A program made the translations under genes and the position numbers. A stretch of 19,088 nt of DNA from an uncultured archaeon (lineage in GTDB: Archaea; Asgardarchaeota; Thorarchaeia; Thorarchaeales; Thorarchaeaceae), in assembly GCA_964631415.1 (NCBI GenBank), contig CAZVZC010000039.1:1-19088 (forward strand). Reading direction: 5' to 3'. The notes below the pieces were generated by a model. It ran no database searches and was not told where the DNA came from. It saw nothing but the letters and a program-made list of their open reading frames with translations. The first letter of the stretch is position 1. Each line of letters starts with the position of its first letter. This document shows positions 6,515 through 16,199 of this stretch, piece after piece.

Positions 6515-8920
6515 TCACGCCTTCGAAGCCCGCCCAAAATGCTCGTAATCCGGTTTCGACACTCTGACGAGGACCGAATTGAAGCCAGGTGTGTGCCCGA
6601 ATGCTGTGTGCCTGTCATCGGTCAGTAGGTTGATGTTGCCATCCCTGTCCCACCAGCCATCTGAAACCCACACCACCCTAGGGTCTATGTCCTCACTGAT
6701 TTCGAGTTTCACAGGGTCGATGGACCCTCGAACGGACTCGACACGGACTAGGTCGCCTCCCGTAAGTCCGAGCCTTTCAGCGGTGTTTGGGTTCATCCTG
6801 AGGAACGTCCTGTGTGTCTCGGCTTCACTCATCGACGACATTCTGATTGGCTCAGTGACAACGTCGAATGGACAGATGTCTAGATTGCATTCTCTGCAGC
6901 CAATGCACTTCTCAGAGTTCCACCTTGGTATGAGCAGGCCTGTGACGCTGCTCGGAACAGCTATGACCCCCCCCGAAGGTTTCACTGCAAGTCCTCTGAC
7001 GAGCTCACTGAGCTCATTCCTCATTCTAGCATGAACCGCCGAATCCTTGCTCGTCGCTCCCTCCAACGCTTCAAGACTTGGTGGCTGCAGCGAAATCGCT
7101 TCATCCTCGCATTCCTTGACACACTTCTGACAGGTCGTACACGCAGAGTAGCTCTTGGCCTCGGCACCGACTTCCACAGTAGTGTATTGGGAGTGAAGTC
7201 GGGTCCGCAACCTACCGGAGATCATGATCAATGGGTAGTCCTTGAACACCTCAGGAGTGGACACTGGACTCTCAGCGGGCTCCTCGTGGAACGGCAGAGG
7301 GTCAAAGCCCATGTCCTGGAGCGTCTTGGAGTACAGCTCAACCCTGCCCGAAGGTGTAAGAAAGTGGTGATTGGCAAAAGGAATCGCGGAACTCTCTGTC
7401 CTGATCCCGCCCGGATTCTCTCTCAGTTTCTCAAGTGTGATCCCCTCGCAGTCATGACTCCTTAATGCCAGCCTGATGGCATTGAGCTCTGTCAGCCGGA
7501 AGTATTGGCCCAAACCGAGTTTCTTCGCAATGCCCGTCCATATCTCCAGTTCGTGTTTCGCCTCTCCTCGCGGTCTTACGATTTTCGGGGCATACTGGAC
7601 AATCCTGTGAAGCTCACTGTGAACGAGGTTATGATGTTCGAACAGAGTAGTCGCAGGCAGAACAACATCACACATGCGAGCTGTGTCTGTCATCTCTATG
7701 TCAATGCAGACCTTGAAGGGGATGTGTTTGAACGCTGCTCGAGTCTTACTTGTGTTGGGCCACTGAGTCAAGGGATTTGCTGCTTGGATTATCAAGACCC
7801 TGAGAGGTGACTCCTCATGGCTCAGCACATACTCCGGGATGAGGGTCCCCGATGGCACGACTGGCACGACCGATTCCGGCAGCATATCGGCAAGAGTTAT
7901 GGCAGAAGCATTGAAGGGGCCGCAGTCCGATGAGAGATACTGGAACCCGCCACCTGAAACGCCCAGATACCCGCAGATTGCGAGAAGGCTATGGACCGCT
8001 CTGGCCGCCCATGTTCCGTTGGTGTAGTGATTCATCCCGGCAGGGGCTGTCATTATGAGAGCAGGTCTGTGCGTGGCGAAGGTCAGGGCAATCGCTTCGA
8101 TTGTGTTTGGGTCTATCCAGGTTATCTGGCTGACAGTCTTCTTGTCATACTGTGCGACTCTCTGCTTGTACTCCTTGAATCCAACTACGCAACTCTCGAC
8201 GAACTCATGGTCGTACAGATCTCTCTTGATTATCTCATTCGCAATCCCAAGCGCAAGTGCTGCATCAGTCCCAGGTCTAATCGTCGTATAGATGTCGGCC
8301 ATCTTGGCATGCGGAGTCTTACGGGGGTCTATTACTATCAGCTTTGCACCCCTTTCGATCGCCTCTCGGATGATCCTCTTGGAGTGAAGGCTCGACTCGA
8401 ACTTATTCGTCCCCCAGATCACTATACACTTCGAGTTGACCCAGTCACTCATCTCATGTGGTGGGAATGGTCCCACATTGAATCTAGCGCCCTCATATGC
8501 TCCCTCGAAACAAATCTCGGCGATACCCGGGATCATCCTGCACCCAATGACGTTGCTGAACCGAGCCGCGTACTTCGGAGCAAGCCCATCGTTGCCAGAC
8601 CCGGAGTAGACAGCTACGGACTGAGGACCGAATCTGCTGCGAGCCTCGGCGATGTGAGCAGCTATCTCGTCCAGTGCGTCATCCCATGTCATTCTCTTGA
8701 AAGTGCCGTCCGCCTTCCTTCGCTGTGGGTGGAGCAGCCTGTCTTCTGAGTATGTCCTCAACACGTGGGCATAGCCCTTGGGACAGCATCTGCCCAGAGT
8801 GTAGGGATGACTCTTGTCACCCTCAAGTCTGACAATGCGACCGTGCTCTACGTGGACCACGAATGCACACATGTCGGGGCAATTAAGCGAACAGGCGCTA
8901 TAGTGCTTCTTGACAGGCAT
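6515..8920 (-). CDS. Molybdopterin (bis-MGD, DMSO reductase superfamily; MopB_3/YoaE-like) oxidoreductase with inserted 2x[4Fe-4S] ferredoxin
   Basis: N-terminal CSLNCPDMC...CPKG Fe-S motif. Also WDDALDEIA, IVIWGTN, IVIDPRKT, IRPGTDAALALG, TDTARMCDVVLPA, TPSGRVELYS, SGRLRTRLHSQ and MNPNTAERLGL. Probable Cys metal ligand in AEICFEGA. CxxCxxCxxxC and CxxCxxCxxxxCP occur in the insert. Confidence 0.93.
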   Translation of the reverse strand: MPVKKHYSACSLNCPDMCAFVVHVEHGRIVRLEGDKSHPYTLGRCCPKGYAHVLRTYSEDRLLHPQRRKADGTFKRMTWDDALDEIAAHIAEARSRFGPQSVAVYSGSGNDGLAPKYAARFSNVIGCRMIPGIAEICFEGAYEGARFNVGPFPPHEMSDWVNSKCIVIWGTNKFESSLHSKRIIREAIERGAKLIVIDPRKTPHAKMADIYTTIRPGTDAALALGIANEIIKRDLYDHEFVESCVVGFKEYKQRVAQYDKKTVSQITWIDPNTIEAIALTFATHRPALIMTAPAGMNHYTNGTWAARAVHSLLAICGYLGVSGGGFQYLSSDCGPFNASAITLADMLPESVVPVVPSGTLIPEYVLSHEESPLRVLIIQAANPLTQWPNTSKTRAAFKHIPFKVCIDIEMTDTARMCDVVLPATTLFEHHNLVHSELHRIVQYAPKIVRPRGEAKHELEIWTGIAKKLGLGQYFRLTELNAIRLALRSHDCEGITLEKLRENPGGIRTESSAIPFANHHFLTPSGRVELYSKTLQDMGFDPLPFHEEPAESPVSTPEVFKDYPLIMISGRLRTRLHSQYTTVEVGAEAKSYSACTTCQKCVKECEDEAISLQPPSLEALEGATSKDSAVHARMRNELSELVRGLAVKPSGGVIAVPSSVTGLLIPRWNSEKCIGCRECNLDICPFDVVTEPIRMSSMSEAETHRTFLRMNPNTAERLGLTGGDLVRVESVRGSIDPVKLEISEDIDPRVVWVSDGWWDRDGNINLLTDDRHTAFGHTPGFNSVLVRVSKPDYEHFGRASKA

Positions 8921-8983: not shown

Positions 8984-9634
8984 TTATGCTATTTGAGAGA
9001 GAAACCCCGATTCCGAATCATTCTGACGAGGAGCATCATTGCGCTTTTCATATCTCTCGAAAGCCTTTCTTATGGTGGCGCCTTTGGTATCGCAGACCGA
9101 CTCCATGCCCTTTAGGTCGCTGATTGTCTGCTTCATCCCGACGTTCGCTTGATCAGCATAGGCTCCTGCAATCAATCCATCTAGAAACTTGTCTGGATCA
9201 TCTGAACTGAAGATCTCATCCCTAAGCCCATCCTTTCGTTCGCGCTCCTCCACTTCCCCGGTGCATGAGGCTGCGAGAAGCCCTCCTACAAAGGCCCATC
9301 CGACAGACGCACCTACGCCTGCATATGACAAAACAGTCAGAAGATCGACGCCTAGCAGCAGGGGCGATAACAGTGTGAACGACACAAGGAAGAAGGGATC
9401 CCAGAACTCGCTCACCCCTGGCATAGGGCCGAATACGTAGCTCTCAATGAATAAGAGGTACGAGAAAAAGACGAGTGGCGCATAGATGAGCGCATGAACA
9501 GCATATCGCCCGAACACGGCCCGGAGGGCTCGAATGACTATCCTTGGACCCACGTCAGCAACATACAGAAAATCGAGAAACAGCACGAGAGCCCACAGCG
9601 GAACCAAGACCCAAGGAAACTCCAACCAGTTCAT
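8984..9634 (-). CDS. Hypothetical membrane protein (about 4 TM segments, charged C-terminal cytoplasmic tail)
   Basis: Long ORF filling the gap between the kinase and the oxidoreductase. Hydrophobic N-terminal half, charged C-terminal half. ATG 9634 preferred; the track starts at 9709. Confidence 0.65.
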   Translation of the reverse strand: MNWLEFPWVLVPLWALVLFLDFLYVADVGPRIVIRALRAVFGRYAVHALIYAPLVFFSYLLFIESYVFGPMPGVSEFWDPFFLVSFTLLSPLLLGVDLLTVLSYAGVGASVGWAFVGGLLAASCTGEVEERERKDGLRDEIFSSDDPDKFLDGLIAGAYADQANVGMKQTISDLKGMESVCDTKGATIRKAFERYEKRNDAPRQNDSESGFLSQIA

Positions 9635-9736
9635 GAGTGTGCCTCCGATTCCATTCCACTCTTCGAGCAGACTGAGAAAAGGATATTGCCCACAAAGCAG
9701 GGATGTCAACTGACCCTTTCCAGGTTGAAGCAGATG

Positions 9737-12730
9737 TCACAGACCAGTCATTGACTCAATGGACGCATAGACCTCCGGCCCTACCAAGTCCGCGACTGCC
9801 GCCGCCACTCGCGTCAGTATTACGCCCATCTCACCCTGACTCAGTTTACCAGTAGGAAGGACTCTGTCGCCCACAACGGTCAACTGTTTGTCGCAGCCTG
9901 CTAGCACTGATGGTGGACATACCAGCCCAGCCTCTCTCAGAAAGCGACCGAAACCCGACCTGCCCTGAAGAACGTCTAGAGCCACCTCTCGTGACTCAGG
10001 GCTCAGCTGAGTCTTCCACACTGCCAACTCGCTCGACCGAGCTGGCTCTTCCTCTGATAAGATGCGGGCCAGCTCATCCGCATTGTCAAGGACATGACCA
10101 ACCTGCTCAAGTACCACTTTCTTCAAGTCGGTCGCTGGCAGAGAACTAGTTCGCTCAAGGAAATCCATGCAGGACCTGCAGGAAGTTCCCCCGGTCACAC
10201 TCCGGCTTGTGAAGTCCACAACGACGTAGCGCGAGGACAGACTCCTTGATGTTTCTCCGGGCATCCCTCCAATGTCACATGTTCCTACGGGGCATTCCAA
10301 GCTGGTGACGTCGTAGCACACTCTCAGATCTGTTCTGTGAGCCGCATAGACTCCAAGCATGTCAACAGTGAATCGGACTTCTGCCTGGTTGCCTATGACC
10401 ACTATCGGATAGAGACCTGTCAGCGCAGCGTGAATCGCTCTCTCCAATCCTCCCTTCAACCTGCTCTTCAGGAACCTTGCTGCGACGGATACCGGGAGTC
10501 GCACAACGAACACAGTACCCCTTGTGAAGTCACCAATGACCCTGTCTTCGACTGAAATCTGGCCACCAAACGCGTCTGTCAATGTGCGAACAAGAGAAAG
10601 GCCAAGTCCTGTTCCCCGGGCACCCTCCATGAATCTGCTGAAGAGCTTCTTCCTCTGTTCAGGCGGAATCCCCGCTCCATAATCTGCTACGCGAACCTCC
10701 CAATGGCTTCTCCCACGAAAGACAGCGGATGATATCTCGACATCGATTCGCTTCTCACCCGGGGAATACTGAATGGCATTATGGAACAGATTGAGGAACA
10801 GATCAATCAAGAGGCTATTCGCATCTACGTAGTAGGGTTCCTCGCTTTCAAAGCGAAGATGTGCATCAATCTCGGGCGTGCTCATCGCCACTTGCTTGAT
10901 CGCATCTGTGATGCATGCAGCTAGGTCGACCGGCACCAACTGTTCGCTCCTCGCTGCGTCAGCCCTGGCGAGCTGTCTAACACTCCTGGTCAGCTCCCCA
11001 GCACGGGCAAGCGCAGCCAGTGCTCCTGCCTTTGCGTTCTCCTCGACGTCCGGTGGGAGACCTTTCATGTCGAGGAGCTCTAGAGCGCTCAGAATGGCCT
11101 GATGATAGTTGCCTATGTCATGCACCAAGATGTCGGCGTATAGAGTCGCTCTCTTTTGAGACGTTTCGGCCCGGAGATATGACCCCATATACAAAGACCC
11201 GAGGAAGGCTGGACCTCCTAGCAGGCCAAGGAGAAGGATCACTTCGGCAGACCACCAACCAGCTGACCATTCATTGAAGACAGACCTGAGAATGTTTGGA
11301 ATAATCCATAAAGCGAGAAACGTGACAGCGGTCAGTTCGACTGTGAATGTGCCTTGTGAGGACCTGAGAAGCAGAAAACATAGATACGTGTACCCGAAGA
11401 CATTGACGAGATTCACTGATAGCAGGATTACTTGACCCAAAGGACTGAATGCAGTATCCGGCGCAGATGTGACTAACCTGAATCCTATTGCCTGGCCAAT
11501 CAAGCTCAGCACGAACACCAGACCGAGACCCTTTACAAGCCAAACCCCTAGTCGACTCTCATCGTCCTGTGTTTCACCAGTCCATCTTATCACCAGTATC
11601 AGGCCGACTGAAACGACAAGACTCCCCACTATGTATGCTACGAATGACGCGGTTTCTCCGACACCGGAAAGCTGGCCAATCCCTATCTGGCCCATTTCGA
11701 CAAGGGCTTGTATCACGAACATCAGAATCAGAGGAAAGTATCTTTTAGCTGGTTTTTGCCTCGAATACGAGAAGACGAGAAATGCCATCACAGTAGATAG
11801 CGCAGATATTCCAATGTGTGATAACGTGTAGGCTCCAAAGTCTACCAAGTGGAAAGTAGGCATGATCACTTTCGCGGCTACAGTGACCAGAAGCGGGGCA
11901 ACGACCAGCATCGACACTGAAAACGCCACAGCATATGACTTCCCTCGACCCAAGGCTGTGCTTCTCAGTATTGGCATGGCCAGAGCCAAGTAAAGGAGAA
12001 AGAATCCCGCCAGCTGCAGCGTCATGGACATAGTCCAGACTGCGCTTGGCCACATCAAGGAGAAGAGCAAAGGCACTGCCGACAGACCCAACACAACTGG
12101 CCCGAGGAGAAGCCGAATTCGGTCGGTCTGATGCGGATATCGGACCTCCTTAGTCAACCGCACTCCGGCTGCTGTCAGCGTGGCCAAGGCCAGCAATCCA
12201 AACATGAAGCCGATGACTGTGACTGCCCATGAAAAGCTTAGAATAAGATAGTGAATCACACCATGAGCTGCCAAACACGAAATCAACATCAAAATCATGG
12301 TTCGGTAAAGTGTTATCTTTCCCCTGCCGGCCAGACGACGGCTGAGAAAGGATGTGACAAGAAGCTGGACACCCAATAGACTGAGTACTGCAAGATCAGA
12401 TACTGTCTGGGCCGCAGACTGAAGCGCCAGCGGTGAAGAGGCACTGAACAGCTGCTCCGCGGAGCCGATCATACTTTCTAAAGACGAAAACACGAAGACT
12501 GAAACGATGAGTACCGGGATGGGCGATGAGTCTTCTCGTGACTGGAACAGTGATGCAGATGCACACTCGATTGTCAGGAAAGCCAGCACCGCGCGGTAAC
12601 CCACACTTATCTCATAAGACTCCCAAGCCTGAACGCTAGTCATGTACACTACAAATGAAACCGAAATGACTACAACGAGGTGACGAATGAACCGATTCGC
12701 AGTTGAGGTCCCACTCCACGACTCAGTCAT
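9737..12730 (-). CDS. Polytopic membrane sensor histidine kinase (HisKA + HATPase_c) with C-terminal DENN-like extension
   Basis: ~520 aa of successive TM helices. H-box ADILVHDIGNYHQ (His537, nt 11120-22), N-box LFLNLFHNAIQYS, G1 VADYGAGIP, F-box LFSRF, G2 GTGLGLSLV. These are followed by ~250 further residues. Confidence 0.92.
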   Translation of the reverse strand: MTESWSGTSTANRFIRHLVVVISVSFVVYMTSVQAWESYEISVGYRAVLAFLTIECASASLFQSREDSSPIPVLIVSVFVFSSLESMIGSAEQLFSASSPLALQSAAQTVSDLAVLSLLGVQLLVTSFLSRRLAGRGKITLYRTMILMLISCLAAHGVIHYLILSFSWAVTVIGFMFGLLALATLTAAGVRLTKEVRYPHQTDRIRLLLGPVVLGLSAVPLLFSLMWPSAVWTMSMTLQLAGFFLLYLALAMPILRSTALGRGKSYAVAFSVSMLVVAPLLVTVAAKVIMPTFHLVDFGAYTLSHIGISALSTVMAFLVFSYSRQKPAKRYFPLILMFVIQALVEMGQIGIGQLSGVGETASFVAYIVGSLVVSVGLILVIRWTGETQDDESRLGVWLVKGLGLVFVLSLIGQAIGFRLVTSAPDTAFSPLGQVILLSVNLVNVFGYTYLCFLLLRSSQGTFTVELTAVTFLALWIIPNILRSVFNEWSAGWWSAEVILLLGLLGGPAFLGSLYMGSYLRAETSQKRATLYADILVHDIGNYHQAILSALELLDMKGLPPDVEENAKAGALAALARAGELTRSVRQLARADAARSEQLVPVDLAACITDAIKQVAMSTPEIDAHLRFESEEPYYVDANSLLIDLFLNLFHNAIQYSPGEKRIDVEISSAVFRGRSHWEVRVADYGAGIPPEQRKKLFSRFMEGARGTGLGLSLVRTLTDAFGGQISVEDRVIGDFTRGTVFVVRLPVSVAARFLKSRLKGGLERAIHAALTGLYPIVVIGNQAEVRFTVDMLGVYAAHRTDLRVCYDVTSLECPVGTCDIGGMPGETSRSLSSRYVVVDFTSRSVTGGTSCRSCMDFLERTSSLPATDLKKVVLEQVGHVLDNADELARILSEEEPARSSELAVWKTQLSPESREVALDVLQGRSGFGRFLREAGLVCPPSVLAGCDKQLTVVGDRVLPTGKLSQGEMGVILTRVAAAVADLVGPEVYASIESMTGL

Positions 12731-12878
12731 CGAATCACACTTCTGACGAATCCCGGCCCAAGAAAACTCTTGTTTGGATGTAGTATTCGATGCAACCGCT
12801 TATTGTGCAGGGAATACCCGGACCAATAGGATAATGTGTAAGCAGATGTACGCGGCGAAGTCAGGAGCGGACCATCCT

Positions 12879-15800
12879 ATGACAGACGAACCGACGATTG
12901 AGATTCGCGACTATAATGACGAACTCGCAAAGCCTCTCGCAGAGATGTACAACAGCTGGGACTCGTTGTGGCCGGGTGGATTCACTCAGGGAGTCCCCTT
13001 CACGGCTGACAGGGTAATCAAGCAGTACCAGACCATGCGAGCACTTGCCATATTGATCGCAATGGACAAGCAGAGCGGCAAACCGGTTGGGTCTGTCACT
13101 CTCCTCTCTCACTGGAGAGACCCCGAAGCTGCATACGTAGGAACGCTTGGTGTGAGTCCGGATGCGCTCAACAAGAAGGTCGGAAAGCGCCTTCTGATGA
13201 AGTGCTTCGAGATTGCACTGCGAAAGGGCTACAGTAGAGTCGATCTCGGAACGTGGGCAGGAAACCTCAGAGCAGTCCCACTCTACAAGAAGATGGGACT
13301 CATGTGGGATCCCGAAGGTCAAGGCGTGGAAATGGAGAGCTATGTGCCGGGAATCCTACAGCATCCGCTATGTGCTCCGTTCTTCGCGACCAATCCGGAT
13401 CCAGCTGCATGGTACGCACTGCAGCGCAGAGACCTGGCTCAGGCACCTGACGATAACACGGAGCACGGAATGGCCGTCTATGTCTACAACTTCGAGAGCG
13501 GCAAGAACAGTCTGCATGTTCTGGTTGATCGCCTCGCAAGGTCAATCACAGGAATCGAACGAGTCATGCCTGACGGGCGTCTTGTGGTGAGGGCAAAGGT
13601 GAGCCAGCACTTGACCCTGTGTGGGATCCCCTCCGTCTACGAACTCAGAATCGAGAATGGCACCGGAAGGGACATCGATCTCGCAATTGCCCTTGAGGGC
13701 TTGCCAGGACTACACTTCGACGGCGTGTCTGGAGCGACAACACGCGTCAAGGCCAAGAAGTCATTCACATTGGCAGTCCCCTTCAGCCTTTCACCAGATG
13801 CTCCTCTCTATCGCCGCAACATCAAAACGCCTTCAATCGTGGCAAAACTGCGACTTAATGGACAGGAGTCCATATTGCGAACCGGCCTGAGGATAAAACC
13901 AGTCGTGGAAATCCAGACGAGATGGAAGGAATGCCGTGTCCTGCCGTCGGGGACCGCAACCATTCCCATTACCATGATCAATAGCTCTTCAATGAAGCTG
14001 AAAGGAAAGCTCATGTTCGAGAATGTCGGACAGCACATTACCGTAACCCCCTCGGAGTGCGAGGTCGAGCTTGCTCCAGAGGGTCTCGGAGGTGCTGTCA
14101 TCACTGTCACGACTCAACCGGATCTTCCAGCTGGCACACATGATCTCTGGGCATACATGATTCTTTCTTACCTCGACGAGGCTGGCAAGAAGAGAGAGGT
14201 AAAGACAGGGAGGTCTAGAATACCCCTCTTCTGTCTGCAAGGAGGCCGTGTCACGGCTGGAGAAGACGACCGTACTCGTGAGGTCTTGCTGGTCGCTCCG
14301 CAGTACACTGCACGTATCCTGCGGGAAGGTGCAGTCCTTAGGCTGTCCAGCCTCTACGGTAGCTCGACCAGTCAGATGACCCTCTCAACAGAGATAGGCC
14401 CGCCCTTCGGGTTGAGCCCATTCCGCTTCGCTGAGCGAGATGTCAAGGTCAGGGTGACAGAGTCAGGTGTCGTAGTGTCGGCCACTGCCACACATCCTGA
14501 GAGACCACTTATGATAGAGGATCGTTGGGTCGCTCTCAACTCATCGCCTGTACTCAAGCACGAAGTGTGGGTCACAAACACAAGTCAGGAAAACCACGAG
14601 ATGCAGGTCAGACTCAATGGCAGAGGAGGCGGCATTCCGCTCAGCTTCGATCGTGTTTTTGTCCCTCTCCCATCAGGTGTAGTTGAGGCACCGACGGGCA
14701 ACTTGCTCATGAGTTACCCATCGATTCCAAGTGAGCCCGGTTCTCTCACAGAGGAGTGGGTAGCCACAGGCGGCCCGTCAGGGGTGTCTGGCCAAGTATG
14801 GAAGCCCACCAACCTTGAGTCTGTTTATCTTGCAGCTGGGCAACTGTCACGCATCGTTTCAAAGCCACTCAGGATCGGCGGAAAGGAAACAAAATGCATT
14901 TCGGAAGTATGGAACATCGCTGCCGCTAGCGACTGGCGTGACATTCAAAGAATCTGGAAGGCGAATGTGAGAGGTGAATACGAGAACGTACAGAAGGCAG
15001 GAGTGCGTCAGCCTACACTTCCGATGATTGCTGTCAGCAAGAAGACTGTCATAATACCTCATAGGCAAAGTGCAGAGGCGGAGCTGACAGTCGATAACAC
15101 CGTTAGTGCCCCTGTGATTGGGAATGTGGAGGTTGAAGCGCCAGAGGGGTGGGATGCCGAAATCAGACACTCTGGCGACAGCACACTCACGGTCGAGCAG
15201 GACACTGATGAGTCAAAAGGGACAGTCCTTCAGGGTCGTCAGAAATACACACTGACGTTGAGGCCCACGGGTCTGACGAAGGCTGGATTCTCGATCGAGA
15301 GAGGGCTCGTGAGGGTGCGCGCGCCCATGGAGTTCCGCGAGTATTTCACGTTGCTGCAGCTCGGGTCTGCTGGTTCCACGGTCACAATCACAGAGGCAAT
15401 CGAGCAGGGCCTAAGAGTGTTCCGCGTGAACAATGGGGTCGCTGAGTTCGCTGTTTCTGGAGACTACGGAGGCTGCCTGTTTTCTCTCAAGAACAGTCAC
15501 TCCACAGAGTTGCTCTGTTCTGCATTCCCGAAGCCCGCACCCAAGCTGTTCATCGACAACTACTGCGGAGGAGTCCAGCCGTTCGTGTGGGATGACAGCT
15601 CGGGTGAGGATATCTTCCAAGTTAAGACGAACAAGGAGAAGATGGACGCCAGGCCATGCGAGCATGGTGGGGTCTGGAAGGGGGTGGAGGTGAGCTGGAC
15701 AAGCCAAGTCCAGAAGACATGCCGAGGAGTGCAATTCAAGCTCCAGTACCTCACTGCCCCAGGCAGTCCCATGGTTCTTGTCAACTGGGTCATCAAGAAC

Positions 15801-16199
15801 TCCACTGGAGCGCCGCTCTCGTTCATGCCGTGTCTCTTTGTGGATCCAGGGTTCAACGGCGCGTTTGGAGGCACCATTGTGCATACCCGTTGGGGAGGAA
15901 GTGAGCTGGACATCACAGACCTGCAAGTCCCTGCCTCTGTCACACCCGAAACAAACTCTCTATGGCTCAGAAGAAGCGCGGTTCAGGAGAACAACGAAGG
16001 GCTAGGAATCCTCTGGGCGGGGTCGGATCCCCAATCAGTCGCAATCTGCACCAGCGAGATGGCCATCTGTGGCGGCATGGACTTCAAGTGCTGGTTGATG
16101 CCCGGCGAGGAGAGAGTCGTCAGGGCATGCCTGTTCGTGGATCCGCCTAACTTCGAGGACCTGGAGAAAGTGCAAGACTCCCTCACAGAGTTGTTCTAG
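12879..16199 (+). CDS. Giant GNAT-family acetyltransferase with multiple beta-rich C-terminal domains
   Basis: GNAT motif A LGVSPDALNKKVGKRLL and motif B TWAGNLRAVPLYKKMG lie in the first ~150 aa. The remainder is beta-strand-rich (Ig-like/supersandwich-like). ATG 12879 has GGAG at 12864-67. Confidence 0.85.
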   Translation: MTDEPTIEIRDYNDELAKPLAEMYNSWDSLWPGGFTQGVPFTADRVIKQYQTMRALAILIAMDKQSGKPVGSVTLLSHWRDPEAAYVGTLGVSPDALNKKVGKRLLMKCFEIALRKGYSRVDLGTWAGNLRAVPLYKKMGLMWDPEGQGVEMESYVPGILQHPLCAPFFATNPDPAAWYALQRRDLAQAPDDNTEHGMAVYVYNFESGKNSLHVLVDRLARSITGIERVMPDGRLVVRAKVSQHLTLCGIPSVYELRIENGTGRDIDLAIALEGLPGLHFDGVSGATTRVKAKKSFTLAVPFSLSPDAPLYRRNIKTPSIVAKLRLNGQESILRTGLRIKPVVEIQTRWKECRVLPSGTATIPITMINSSSMKLKGKLMFENVGQHITVTPSECEVELAPEGLGGAVITVTTQPDLPAGTHDLWAYMILSYLDEAGKKREVKTGRSRIPLFCLQGGRVTAGEDDRTREVLLVAPQYTARILREGAVLRLSSLYGSSTSQMTLSTEIGPPFGLSPFRFAERDVKVRVTESGVVVSATATHPERPLMIEDRWVALNSSPVLKHEVWVTNTSQENHEMQVRLNGRGGGIPLSFDRVFVPLPSGVVEAPTGNLLMSYPSIPSEPGSLTEEWVATGGPSGVSGQVWKPTNLESVYLAAGQLSRIVSKPLRIGGKETKCISEVWNIAAASDWRDIQRIWKANVRGEYENVQKAGVRQPTLPMIAVSKKTVIIPHRQSAEAELTVDNTVSAPVIGNVEVEAPEGWDAEIRHSGDSTLTVEQDTDESKGTVLQGRQKYTLTLRPTGLTKAGFSIERGLVRVRAPMEFREYFTLLQLGSAGSTVTITEAIEQGLRVFRVNNGVAEFAVSGDYGGCLFSLKNSHSTELLCSAFPKPAPKLFIDNYCGGVQPFVWDDSSGEDIFQVKTNKEKMDARPCEHGGVWKGVEVSWTSQVQKTCRGVQFKLQYLTAPGSPMVLVNWVIKNSTGAPLSFMPCLFVDPGFNGAFGGTIVHTRWGGSELDITDLQVPASVTPETNSLWLRRSAVQENNEGLGILWAGSDPQSVAICTSEMAICGGMDFKCWLMPGEERVVRACLFVDPPNFEDLEKVQDSLTELF

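Follow-up and report, generated by a model that had tools for sequence, protein, structure and literature searches.

DENN modules were long regarded as eukaryote-specific parts of the regulators of Rab, Rag and Arf GTPases, and the Asgard archaea are now known to carry them as well. Asgard organisms are mostly uncultured, and the archaeal DENN proteins come without an assayable activity. The present analysis deals with P0001, a gene of an uncultured thorarchaeon whose one open frame (9737-12730, minus strand; 997 amino acids) encodes a polytopic sensor histidine kinase followed by what is predicted to be a C-terminal DENN module. The window, i.e., the whole stretch of DNA that was analysed, is the complete 19,088-bp contig (C39) of genome G000, a 2.16-Mb draft metagenome-assembled genome that is 85% complete and consists of 81 contigs. 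In the text of their preprint, Liu et al. (2020/2021) reported Asgard DENN domains with architectures unlike the eukaryotic ones and, in Fig. 5c, NPRL2-like longin domains fused to two-component domains (bioRxiv 10.1101/2020.10.19.343400). A histidine kinase-DENN architecture is not named in the text of the literature searched, which for Liu et al. means the text apart from Fig. 5b and the tables. An earlier note on this DNA had taken the kinase-DENN concept to be undescribed, which overstated its novelty in view of the unusual DENN architectures and the longin/two-component fusions already in the text of Liu et al. Compared with these systems, P0001 very probably consists of an intact polytopic kinase joined to the cDENN/dDENN module of an Asgard longin-DENN protein, with the kinase in the place of the longin.

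The predicted DENN tail and its family

The tail comprises residues 748-997 (nt 9740-10489) and directly follows the HATPase_c domain, with no stop codon between them. The earlier note had described a complete HATPase domain continued by about 250 residues, and this is what the single open frame holds, the string GTVFVVRLP ending at residue 746 (about nt 10493). Neither Pfam nor NCBIfam gave a match to the tail at E<=1, and it therefore contains no receiver, Hpt or PAS domain; nor is there a response regulator among the other large open reading frames of the window, both as had been claimed from the letters alone. An alignment of nine tails (A1) was the input to profile searches and to an AlphaFold2 model. 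Against PDB sequences, the profile of the nine tails returned noise only (E>=0.17).

The predicted fold was far more informative. The AlphaFold2 model of the tail, with a mean predicted local distance difference test score (pLDDT) of 90.6 and a predicted template modelling score (pTM) of 0.88, has an alpha/beta core (model residues 1-115), then helices (116-176) and an extension (177-248) made up of further helices and a beta-hairpin. Foldseek against the PDB returned as its best match 3v42_A, the C-terminal domain of folliculin (FLCN), with E 1.4e-3, probability 1.00 and a template modelling (TM) score by target of 0.56, followed by FLCN, C9orf72, SMCR8 and DENND10. In the structural comparison table FLCN stood at 11.8 (3.5 A / 168), ahead of DENND10 (11.3), SMCR8 (10.1), C9orf72 (9.3) and DENND1A/DENND1B (8.4/8.3), and the next class, the FlaI/GspE ATPases, came at about 6. 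VIA-align placed DENN proteins alone at the top of Foldseek's list, and a run over 48,161 representative chains that did not draw on Foldseek was again led by these six DENN proteins, with no CheY-like chain among the best 50. The top of the ESM Atlas search was a Heimdallarchaeota cluster with Pfam Folliculin (TM 0.63, 180 aligned, root-mean-square deviation 2.8), and eukaryotic FLCN/SMCR8-type, SMCR8 and DENN clusters took the next ranks. A call first made from sequence motifs was thereby borne out by the model and by Foldseek, VIA-align and the ESM Atlas; as DENN proteins top the fold searches, it holds at the level of the fold, where a degenerate receiver fails. As far as the model can be relied on, the tail is a folliculin/SMCR8-type DENN domain. 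The ESM Atlas also listed a shape likeness to the middle domain of the bacterial 'GTPase-associated protein 1' (GAP1-M/N2), which at TM 0.40-0.43 is too weak to interpret.

The features of the gene, all on the minus strand, are as follows.

9737-12730, minus strand: whole gene P0001, a single open reading frame with full-length orthologues P0004, P0005 and P0007; stop codon at 9737-9739
11171-12730, minus strand: N-terminal membrane sensor region, residues 1-520, with about 14 hydrophobic helices in a Kyte-Doolittle scan
10814-11170, minus strand: DHp/dimerisation region, residues 521-639, with the H-box VHDIGNYH, placed by NCBIfam alignments and motif position
11120-11122, minus strand: codon of H537, the predicted phospho-accepting histidine (HDIGNYH at 537), conserved in P0004, P0005 and P0007
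10490-10813, minus strand: HATPase_c catalytic (CA) domain, residues 640-747, Pfam PF02518 with E 8.9e-23 and the same DNA interval in the genome search
10139-10483, minus strand: predicted cDENN alpha/beta core, residues 750-864, from AlphaFold2 secondary structure and the folliculin alignment
9956-10138, minus strand: predicted dDENN helical part, residues 865-925, model helices H117-142, H151-159 and H162-173
9740-9955, minus strand: C-terminal extension, residues 926-997, model elements H177-246 and E201-210

Judged by its motifs, the sensor kinase core is intact, as the sequence has both the HATPase_c domain and the DHp histidine. The N-box (647), G1 (683), F (697) and G2 (706) boxes were found by motif inspection, and the NCBIfam kinase models CreC, ChvG and LvrB align from residue 529 onwards and thus span the DHp region, though Pfam HisKA has no match in the kinase. 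A Pfam search with residues 1-520 was likewise without a match, and the membrane region belongs to no known sensor family.

In the tail, the cDENN and dDENN parts align to folliculin residues 348-558, with the folliculin/SMCR8 alignment reaching model residue 176. The alpha/beta core followed by a helical dDENN, by which the DENN superfamily is recognised, is present in the model, and the N-terminal longin (uDENN) that belongs in the same polypeptide is absent from P0001. The strings LERAIHAALTG, CDIGG and VVVDF occur at 762, 818 and 836. D819 (DIxG) never varies, whether in the tails or in the free-standing longin-DENN family, D839 (VVVD) is the same in all nine tails and almost always in the mixed alignment A4, and several glycines of the tail are nearly invariant. 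The two aspartates (codons 10274-10276 and 10214-10216, minus strand) end neighbouring strands. Together with the conserved glycines, they may mark a putative binding site.

The family of the tail emerged from a six-frame survey of genomes, and protein database searches added little. Searched exhaustively with phmmer, 1.84 billion representatives yielded no more than seven relatives of the tail, and word-indexed searches returned the close orthologues and a fragment with a single tail, and four proteins with the profile. In the six-frame survey, the A1 profile detected a DENN domain in 85 of 400 Asgard genomes, most of the frames being 340-400 amino acids long, with expanded paralogues in families f5 (31/31 genomes), f18 (19/22) and f20 (12/12) and up to 6-7 matches per genome. 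P0008, the closest free-standing relative of the tail, models as longin plus DENN. The curated DENN-type profiles have no match to the tail itself and only sub-threshold matches to its homologues; among 19 free-standing relatives, Pfam Folliculin (the longin half) appeared in six (best E 1.6e-5), C9orf72-like in six (3e-3) and Folliculin_C in two (best E 2.1e-4), and P0010 has a weak precomputed SMCR8_C match. Many free-standing relatives also conserve an 'FDxxxGP' start, the type of start that is the GP motif of GTPase-activating protein (GAP)-type longins in a 2025 paper (PMC12290439). From the longin and DENN signals in its relatives, the family is therefore the Asgard longin-DENN family of Liu et al. 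The proposal that the kinase occupies the place of the longin module agrees with the model of P0008 and with the Folliculin and C9orf72-like matches of the distant relatives.

The C-terminal extension of the tail, which runs through helices and a beta-hairpin to two final helices, is specific to a subfamily and is common to P0007, P0008, P0009, P0013 and L009. Folliculin does not align to it, and DENND10, C9orf72 and DENND1A do so only in part, up to residues 210-218. Other architectures occur in the family as well. Forms of 560-600 amino acids are found, and the one inspected by eye, P0009 (558 amino acids), reads as a membrane region with longin-like and DENN parts after it; frames of similar length, 556-593 amino acids, lie in other Asgard lineages (L074:3738-7526, L075:2806-4473 and L076:1647-3344), sometimes as tandem paralogues. 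Tandem double-DENN proteins of about 750-770 amino acids, in which the DENN parts come after a 380-residue N-terminal region without a Pfam match, were seen in genomes of family f20 (L073:2279-4576, L064:2453-4726 and L070:1757-3994), which have 5-7 DENN matches each. By Pfam, neither a GTPase nor any other known domain is fused to the tandem DENN proteins of about 760 amino acids or to the 470-600-residue forms.

Authenticity and origin of the fusion

The fusion is not unique to this contig; a lost stop codon or chimeric assembly found on this contig alone was what the earlier note had named as overturning its proposal. P0004 and P0005, the latter under the NCBI name Candidatus Thorarchaeota, have the same length and architecture as P0001, with tails that are 90% and 80% identical. 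P0007 is a distant full-length orthologue with a 31% identical tail, and the gene order around it on a 25-kb metagenome contig (L002) matches the window gene for gene. The tail is present in all four genomes of genus g1 (G000-G003), in a frame of 1001-1040 amino acids without an internal stop. When G000 was compared with G002, the ratio of non-synonymous to synonymous substitutions (dN/dS) was 0.17 for the tail (dS 0.59), 0.19 for the membrane region and 0.09 for the kinase core. Purifying selection acts on the tail, which evolves faster than the kinase core, with identities between G000 and G003 of 36% and 64%, respectively.

These data bear on three ways in which the tail could be something other than a working DENN module. 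The fusion could be an artefact, with a lost stop, a frameshift or a chimeric contig joining separate kinase and DENN genes; other kinases of the family do end just after the ATPase domain, and G000 is a metagenome-assembled draft in 81 contigs. Yet the same uninterrupted frame recurs in four genomes and on independent contigs, with tails diverged to 31-90% identity and the gene order conserved, and the first DENN helix begins no more than about six residues past the CA domain. The lost-stop and chimera readings were rejected on these grounds, and an artefact has a negligible chance of being the explanation. Orthologues that share the frame, together with the dN/dS ratios, also set aside a decaying appendage, so that a recently acquired, functionless passenger, kept because the fusion is young, is quite improbable. 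The restriction of the fusion to one genus and the faster evolution of the tail would suit a passenger, but dN/dS of 0.17 at dS of about 0.6 does not, and the frame has stayed open across species at 31-36% tail identity with D819, D839 and the glycines kept. A disguised hybrid kinase, with a degenerate receiver or another non-DENN fold as its tail, draws on the fact that the tail sits where the output receiver is found in hybrid kinases, and on its alpha/beta make-up with invariant aspartates at strand ends. Against the lack of a Response_reg match, the DENN fold and the absence of CheY-like chains from the best structural matches, this reading is hardly credible.

The history of the fusion was approached with a maximum-likelihood tree of 39 DENN domains. 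The four kinase-fused domains form one clade (100/98), which is sister to P0008 plus P0009 (95/90) and then to two Odinarchaeia-type proteins, some rows of the tree being on long branches. Residues 1-750, the kinase part, place P0001 in a polytopic kinase family that is present in all 41 genomes, from 16 genera, sampled in the same taxonomic family. The tail-less kinases there are 745-790 amino acids long, end right after the ATPase domain and are homologous over the whole sensor region, and G001-G003 keep tail-less paralogues in addition to the fused form. Outside genus g1, the DENN profile finds a single weak match in 81 genomes of this taxonomic family, and no second DENN was found in genus g1. 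One fusion event accounts for this most simply: in the ancestor of one Thorarchaeota genus, an existing kinase was joined to a DENN half that probably came from another Asgard lineage. The earlier note had proposed a survey of Asgard genomes for such architectures; the kinase-DENN architecture recurs in all four genomes of genus g1 and is confined to that genus. In some sister genera (G386:C77, G020:C44, G017:C21 and G009:C14), the kinases of this family, about 760 amino acids long, lie tail-to-tail with a second kinase gene of about 620-690 amino acids, and the two may be a conserved pair.

Possible coupling to small GTPases

In the mechanism that is proposed, the membrane domain would sense a signal and set the conformation of the DHp/CA dimer and its autophosphorylation at H537. 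The DENN module, which the kinase would keep at the membrane, would serve as a protein-binding surface that binds either a Rab/Arf/Rag-like GTPase in the manner of DENND1 or a longin/roadblock partner, and the state of the sensor would be coupled to the state of the GTPase in either direction. Whether the sensor kinase is in fact coupled through its DENN module to a small-GTPase system is nearly an even question, tilting slightly towards doubt, and here we infer the partner, the direction of signalling and a guanine nucleotide exchange factor (GEF) or GAP effect. A narrower version, in which the membrane sensor kinase directly controls a Rab/Arf/Rag-like GTPase through its own DENN module and the kinase dimer replaces the longin pair, is unlikely. 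The kinase dimer might also set two DENN domains side by side, in the way of the FLCN-FNIP and C9orf72-SMCR8 pairs. When two copies of the tail were co-folded, the score was 0.00 against a mark of 0.42, which speaks neither for nor against dimerisation.

Several points weigh against such a coupling. Some DENN modules are scaffolds that do not touch a GTPase, as with DENND10 in Commander and the DENN domain of FLCN in its lysosomal complex. The tail has no Pfam or PDB profile match, so its membership in the DENN superfamily rests on the predicted fold and on homology to weakly matching relatives. The GAP arginine of folliculin and C9orf72-SMCR8 sits in the longin half (PMC12290439); P0001 lacks that half and hence the GAP-arginine half of FLCN-type complexes, and an FLCN-type longin profile (A3), run without a positive control, had no match in the four genomes of genus g1. 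No small GTPase, roadblock or longin gene adjoins the P0001 gene or those of its closest relatives. Being confined to one genus, the fusion is also no general Asgard mechanism.

A conventional two-component kinase is the main competing explanation for the gene. The DENN module would then be a scaffold, oligomerisation or autoregulatory domain unrelated to GTPases, bound to a non-GTPase partner or to the CA/DHp core, with His-to-Asp transfer to an unlinked response regulator; this is possible, if rather doubtful. For such a transfer, only two receiver domains were found in the 85%-complete G000, compared with seven HATPase_c matches, and each of the two adjoins other kinases on contig C10; as they lie in one cluster, most kinases of the genome have no obvious partner. 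This cluster (48.2-50.8 kb) consists of a 739-residue kinase, a 147-residue receiver frame and a 619-residue receiver-kinase. The conventional explanation also has to contend with the ties of the DENN superfamily as a whole to small-GTPase regulators and with the richness of G000 in Ras-like and roadblock proteins (17 and 12 matches, respectively).

The wider neighbourhoods were searched for partners that would bear on the coupling to GTPases. Those of P0008, P0009, P0010, P0012, G037, G162, G166, G313 and G003 have no conserved GTPase, roadblock or kinase gene. Between the relatives' DENN genes and the nearest Ras-like genes lie 5-17 kb, nothing unusual in genomes that hold 16-79 such genes. 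In a single case, the contig of P0009, a 330-residue HATPase_c gene lies two genes downstream. Elsewhere in G000, at 98-103 kb of contig C1 (L077:4154-8677), there is a eukaryote-like trafficking cluster with no DENN gene inside. It comprises a LAMTOR5-like roadblock protein, a Sec23/24-like protein (trunk, beta-sandwich and zinc finger), two more roadblock proteins, one of them MP1/LAMTOR3-like, and at its end an Arf-like GTPase and another roadblock protein, for a total of four roadblock genes.

Within the window, one small gene lies 27 nt downstream of the kinase.

8984-9709, minus strand: small membrane protein P0002, of no family, whose real start is probably M26 (about nt 9634)

P0002 is 40% identical to the product of a 219-residue gene that follows P0007 in L002. 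With this query, no homologue was found after the kinase in G002 or elsewhere in the family. P0002 is possibly co-transcribed with the kinase, and its link to the kinase is uncertain; as it is missing after the kinase in G002, it was rejected as an obligatory kinase partner.

The other large open reading frames of the window encode TauE, an M29 peptidase, two CitMHS transporters, a molybdopterin oxidoreductase, a GNAT-containing protein, SCP2, an FAD oxidase and a CCG/Fe-S protein. The molybdopterin oxidoreductase (6515-8920, minus strand; 801 amino acids) has a Cys-rich 4Fe-4S ferredoxin-like stretch (about residues 579-687, weak Fer4 matches) between its Molybdopterin and Molydop_binding domains, and its orthologue follows the kinase in L002 and abuts it directly in G002. 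On the other side, divergent from the kinase with about 43 nt between the starts, is the gene of a 1141-residue protein (12774-16199, plus strand) that has a GNAT acetyltransferase at its N-terminus, as well as a weak FixG_C Ig-like match, and is kept at the same place in L002 (1104 amino acids).

Implications and comparison with known systems

The kinase-DENN fusion offers a practical handle on the function of archaeal DENN proteins. Since a histidine kinase has an activity that can be measured in a standard way (autophosphorylation and phosphotransfer) and a fixed location in the membrane, recombinant fragments allow tests of the partners of the DENN module and of what they do to kinase output. 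Should there be a GTPase partner, eukaryote-type GTPase regulation would have been connected to prokaryotic signalling before eukaryotes arose; without one, DENN would be a scaffold domain of general use in archaea. Either conclusion is limited in its generality, since the fusion is confined to one genus. Control of a GTPase by the kinase, if true, would join two-component and small-GTPase signalling in a naturally occurring hybrid, in archaea related to eukaryotes, and P0001 would be the first DENN protein without a longin to act on a GTPase.

Among eukaryotic proteins, the C-terminal DENN domain of folliculin (PDB 3V42; FLCN in 6NZD, 6ULG and 8DHB) is 11-12% identical to the tail. FLCN has an N-terminal longin with the GAP arginine and pairs with FNIP, whereas P0001 has a membrane kinase instead of the longin and its tail is longer by a C-terminal extension of 70 residues. 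SMCR8/C9orf72, DENND10 and DENND1A/B (PDB 6LT0, 7O2W, 7MGE, 8P0V, 6EKK and 3TW8), at 7-16% identity to the tail, are soluble eukaryotic longin(uDENN)-DENN proteins, none of which is fused to a kinase or membrane domain. Hybrid sensor histidine kinases share the kinase core of P0001 and likewise have an extra domain right after HATPase_c; theirs is a C-terminal receiver, and that of P0001 is no receiver by sequence or fold. By sequence, the tail is a member of the Asgard longin-DENN proteins in the text of Liu et al., which carry a longin where P0001 has a 750-residue polytopic histidine kinase. The NPRL2-like longin/two-component fusions of Asgard archaea, as presented in that text, follow the same logic as P0001 in joining a eukaryote-type GTPase-regulator module to prokaryotic two-component parts; they use the longin half of a GATOR1-type protein, and P0001 uses the DENN half of an FLCN/SMCR8-type protein.

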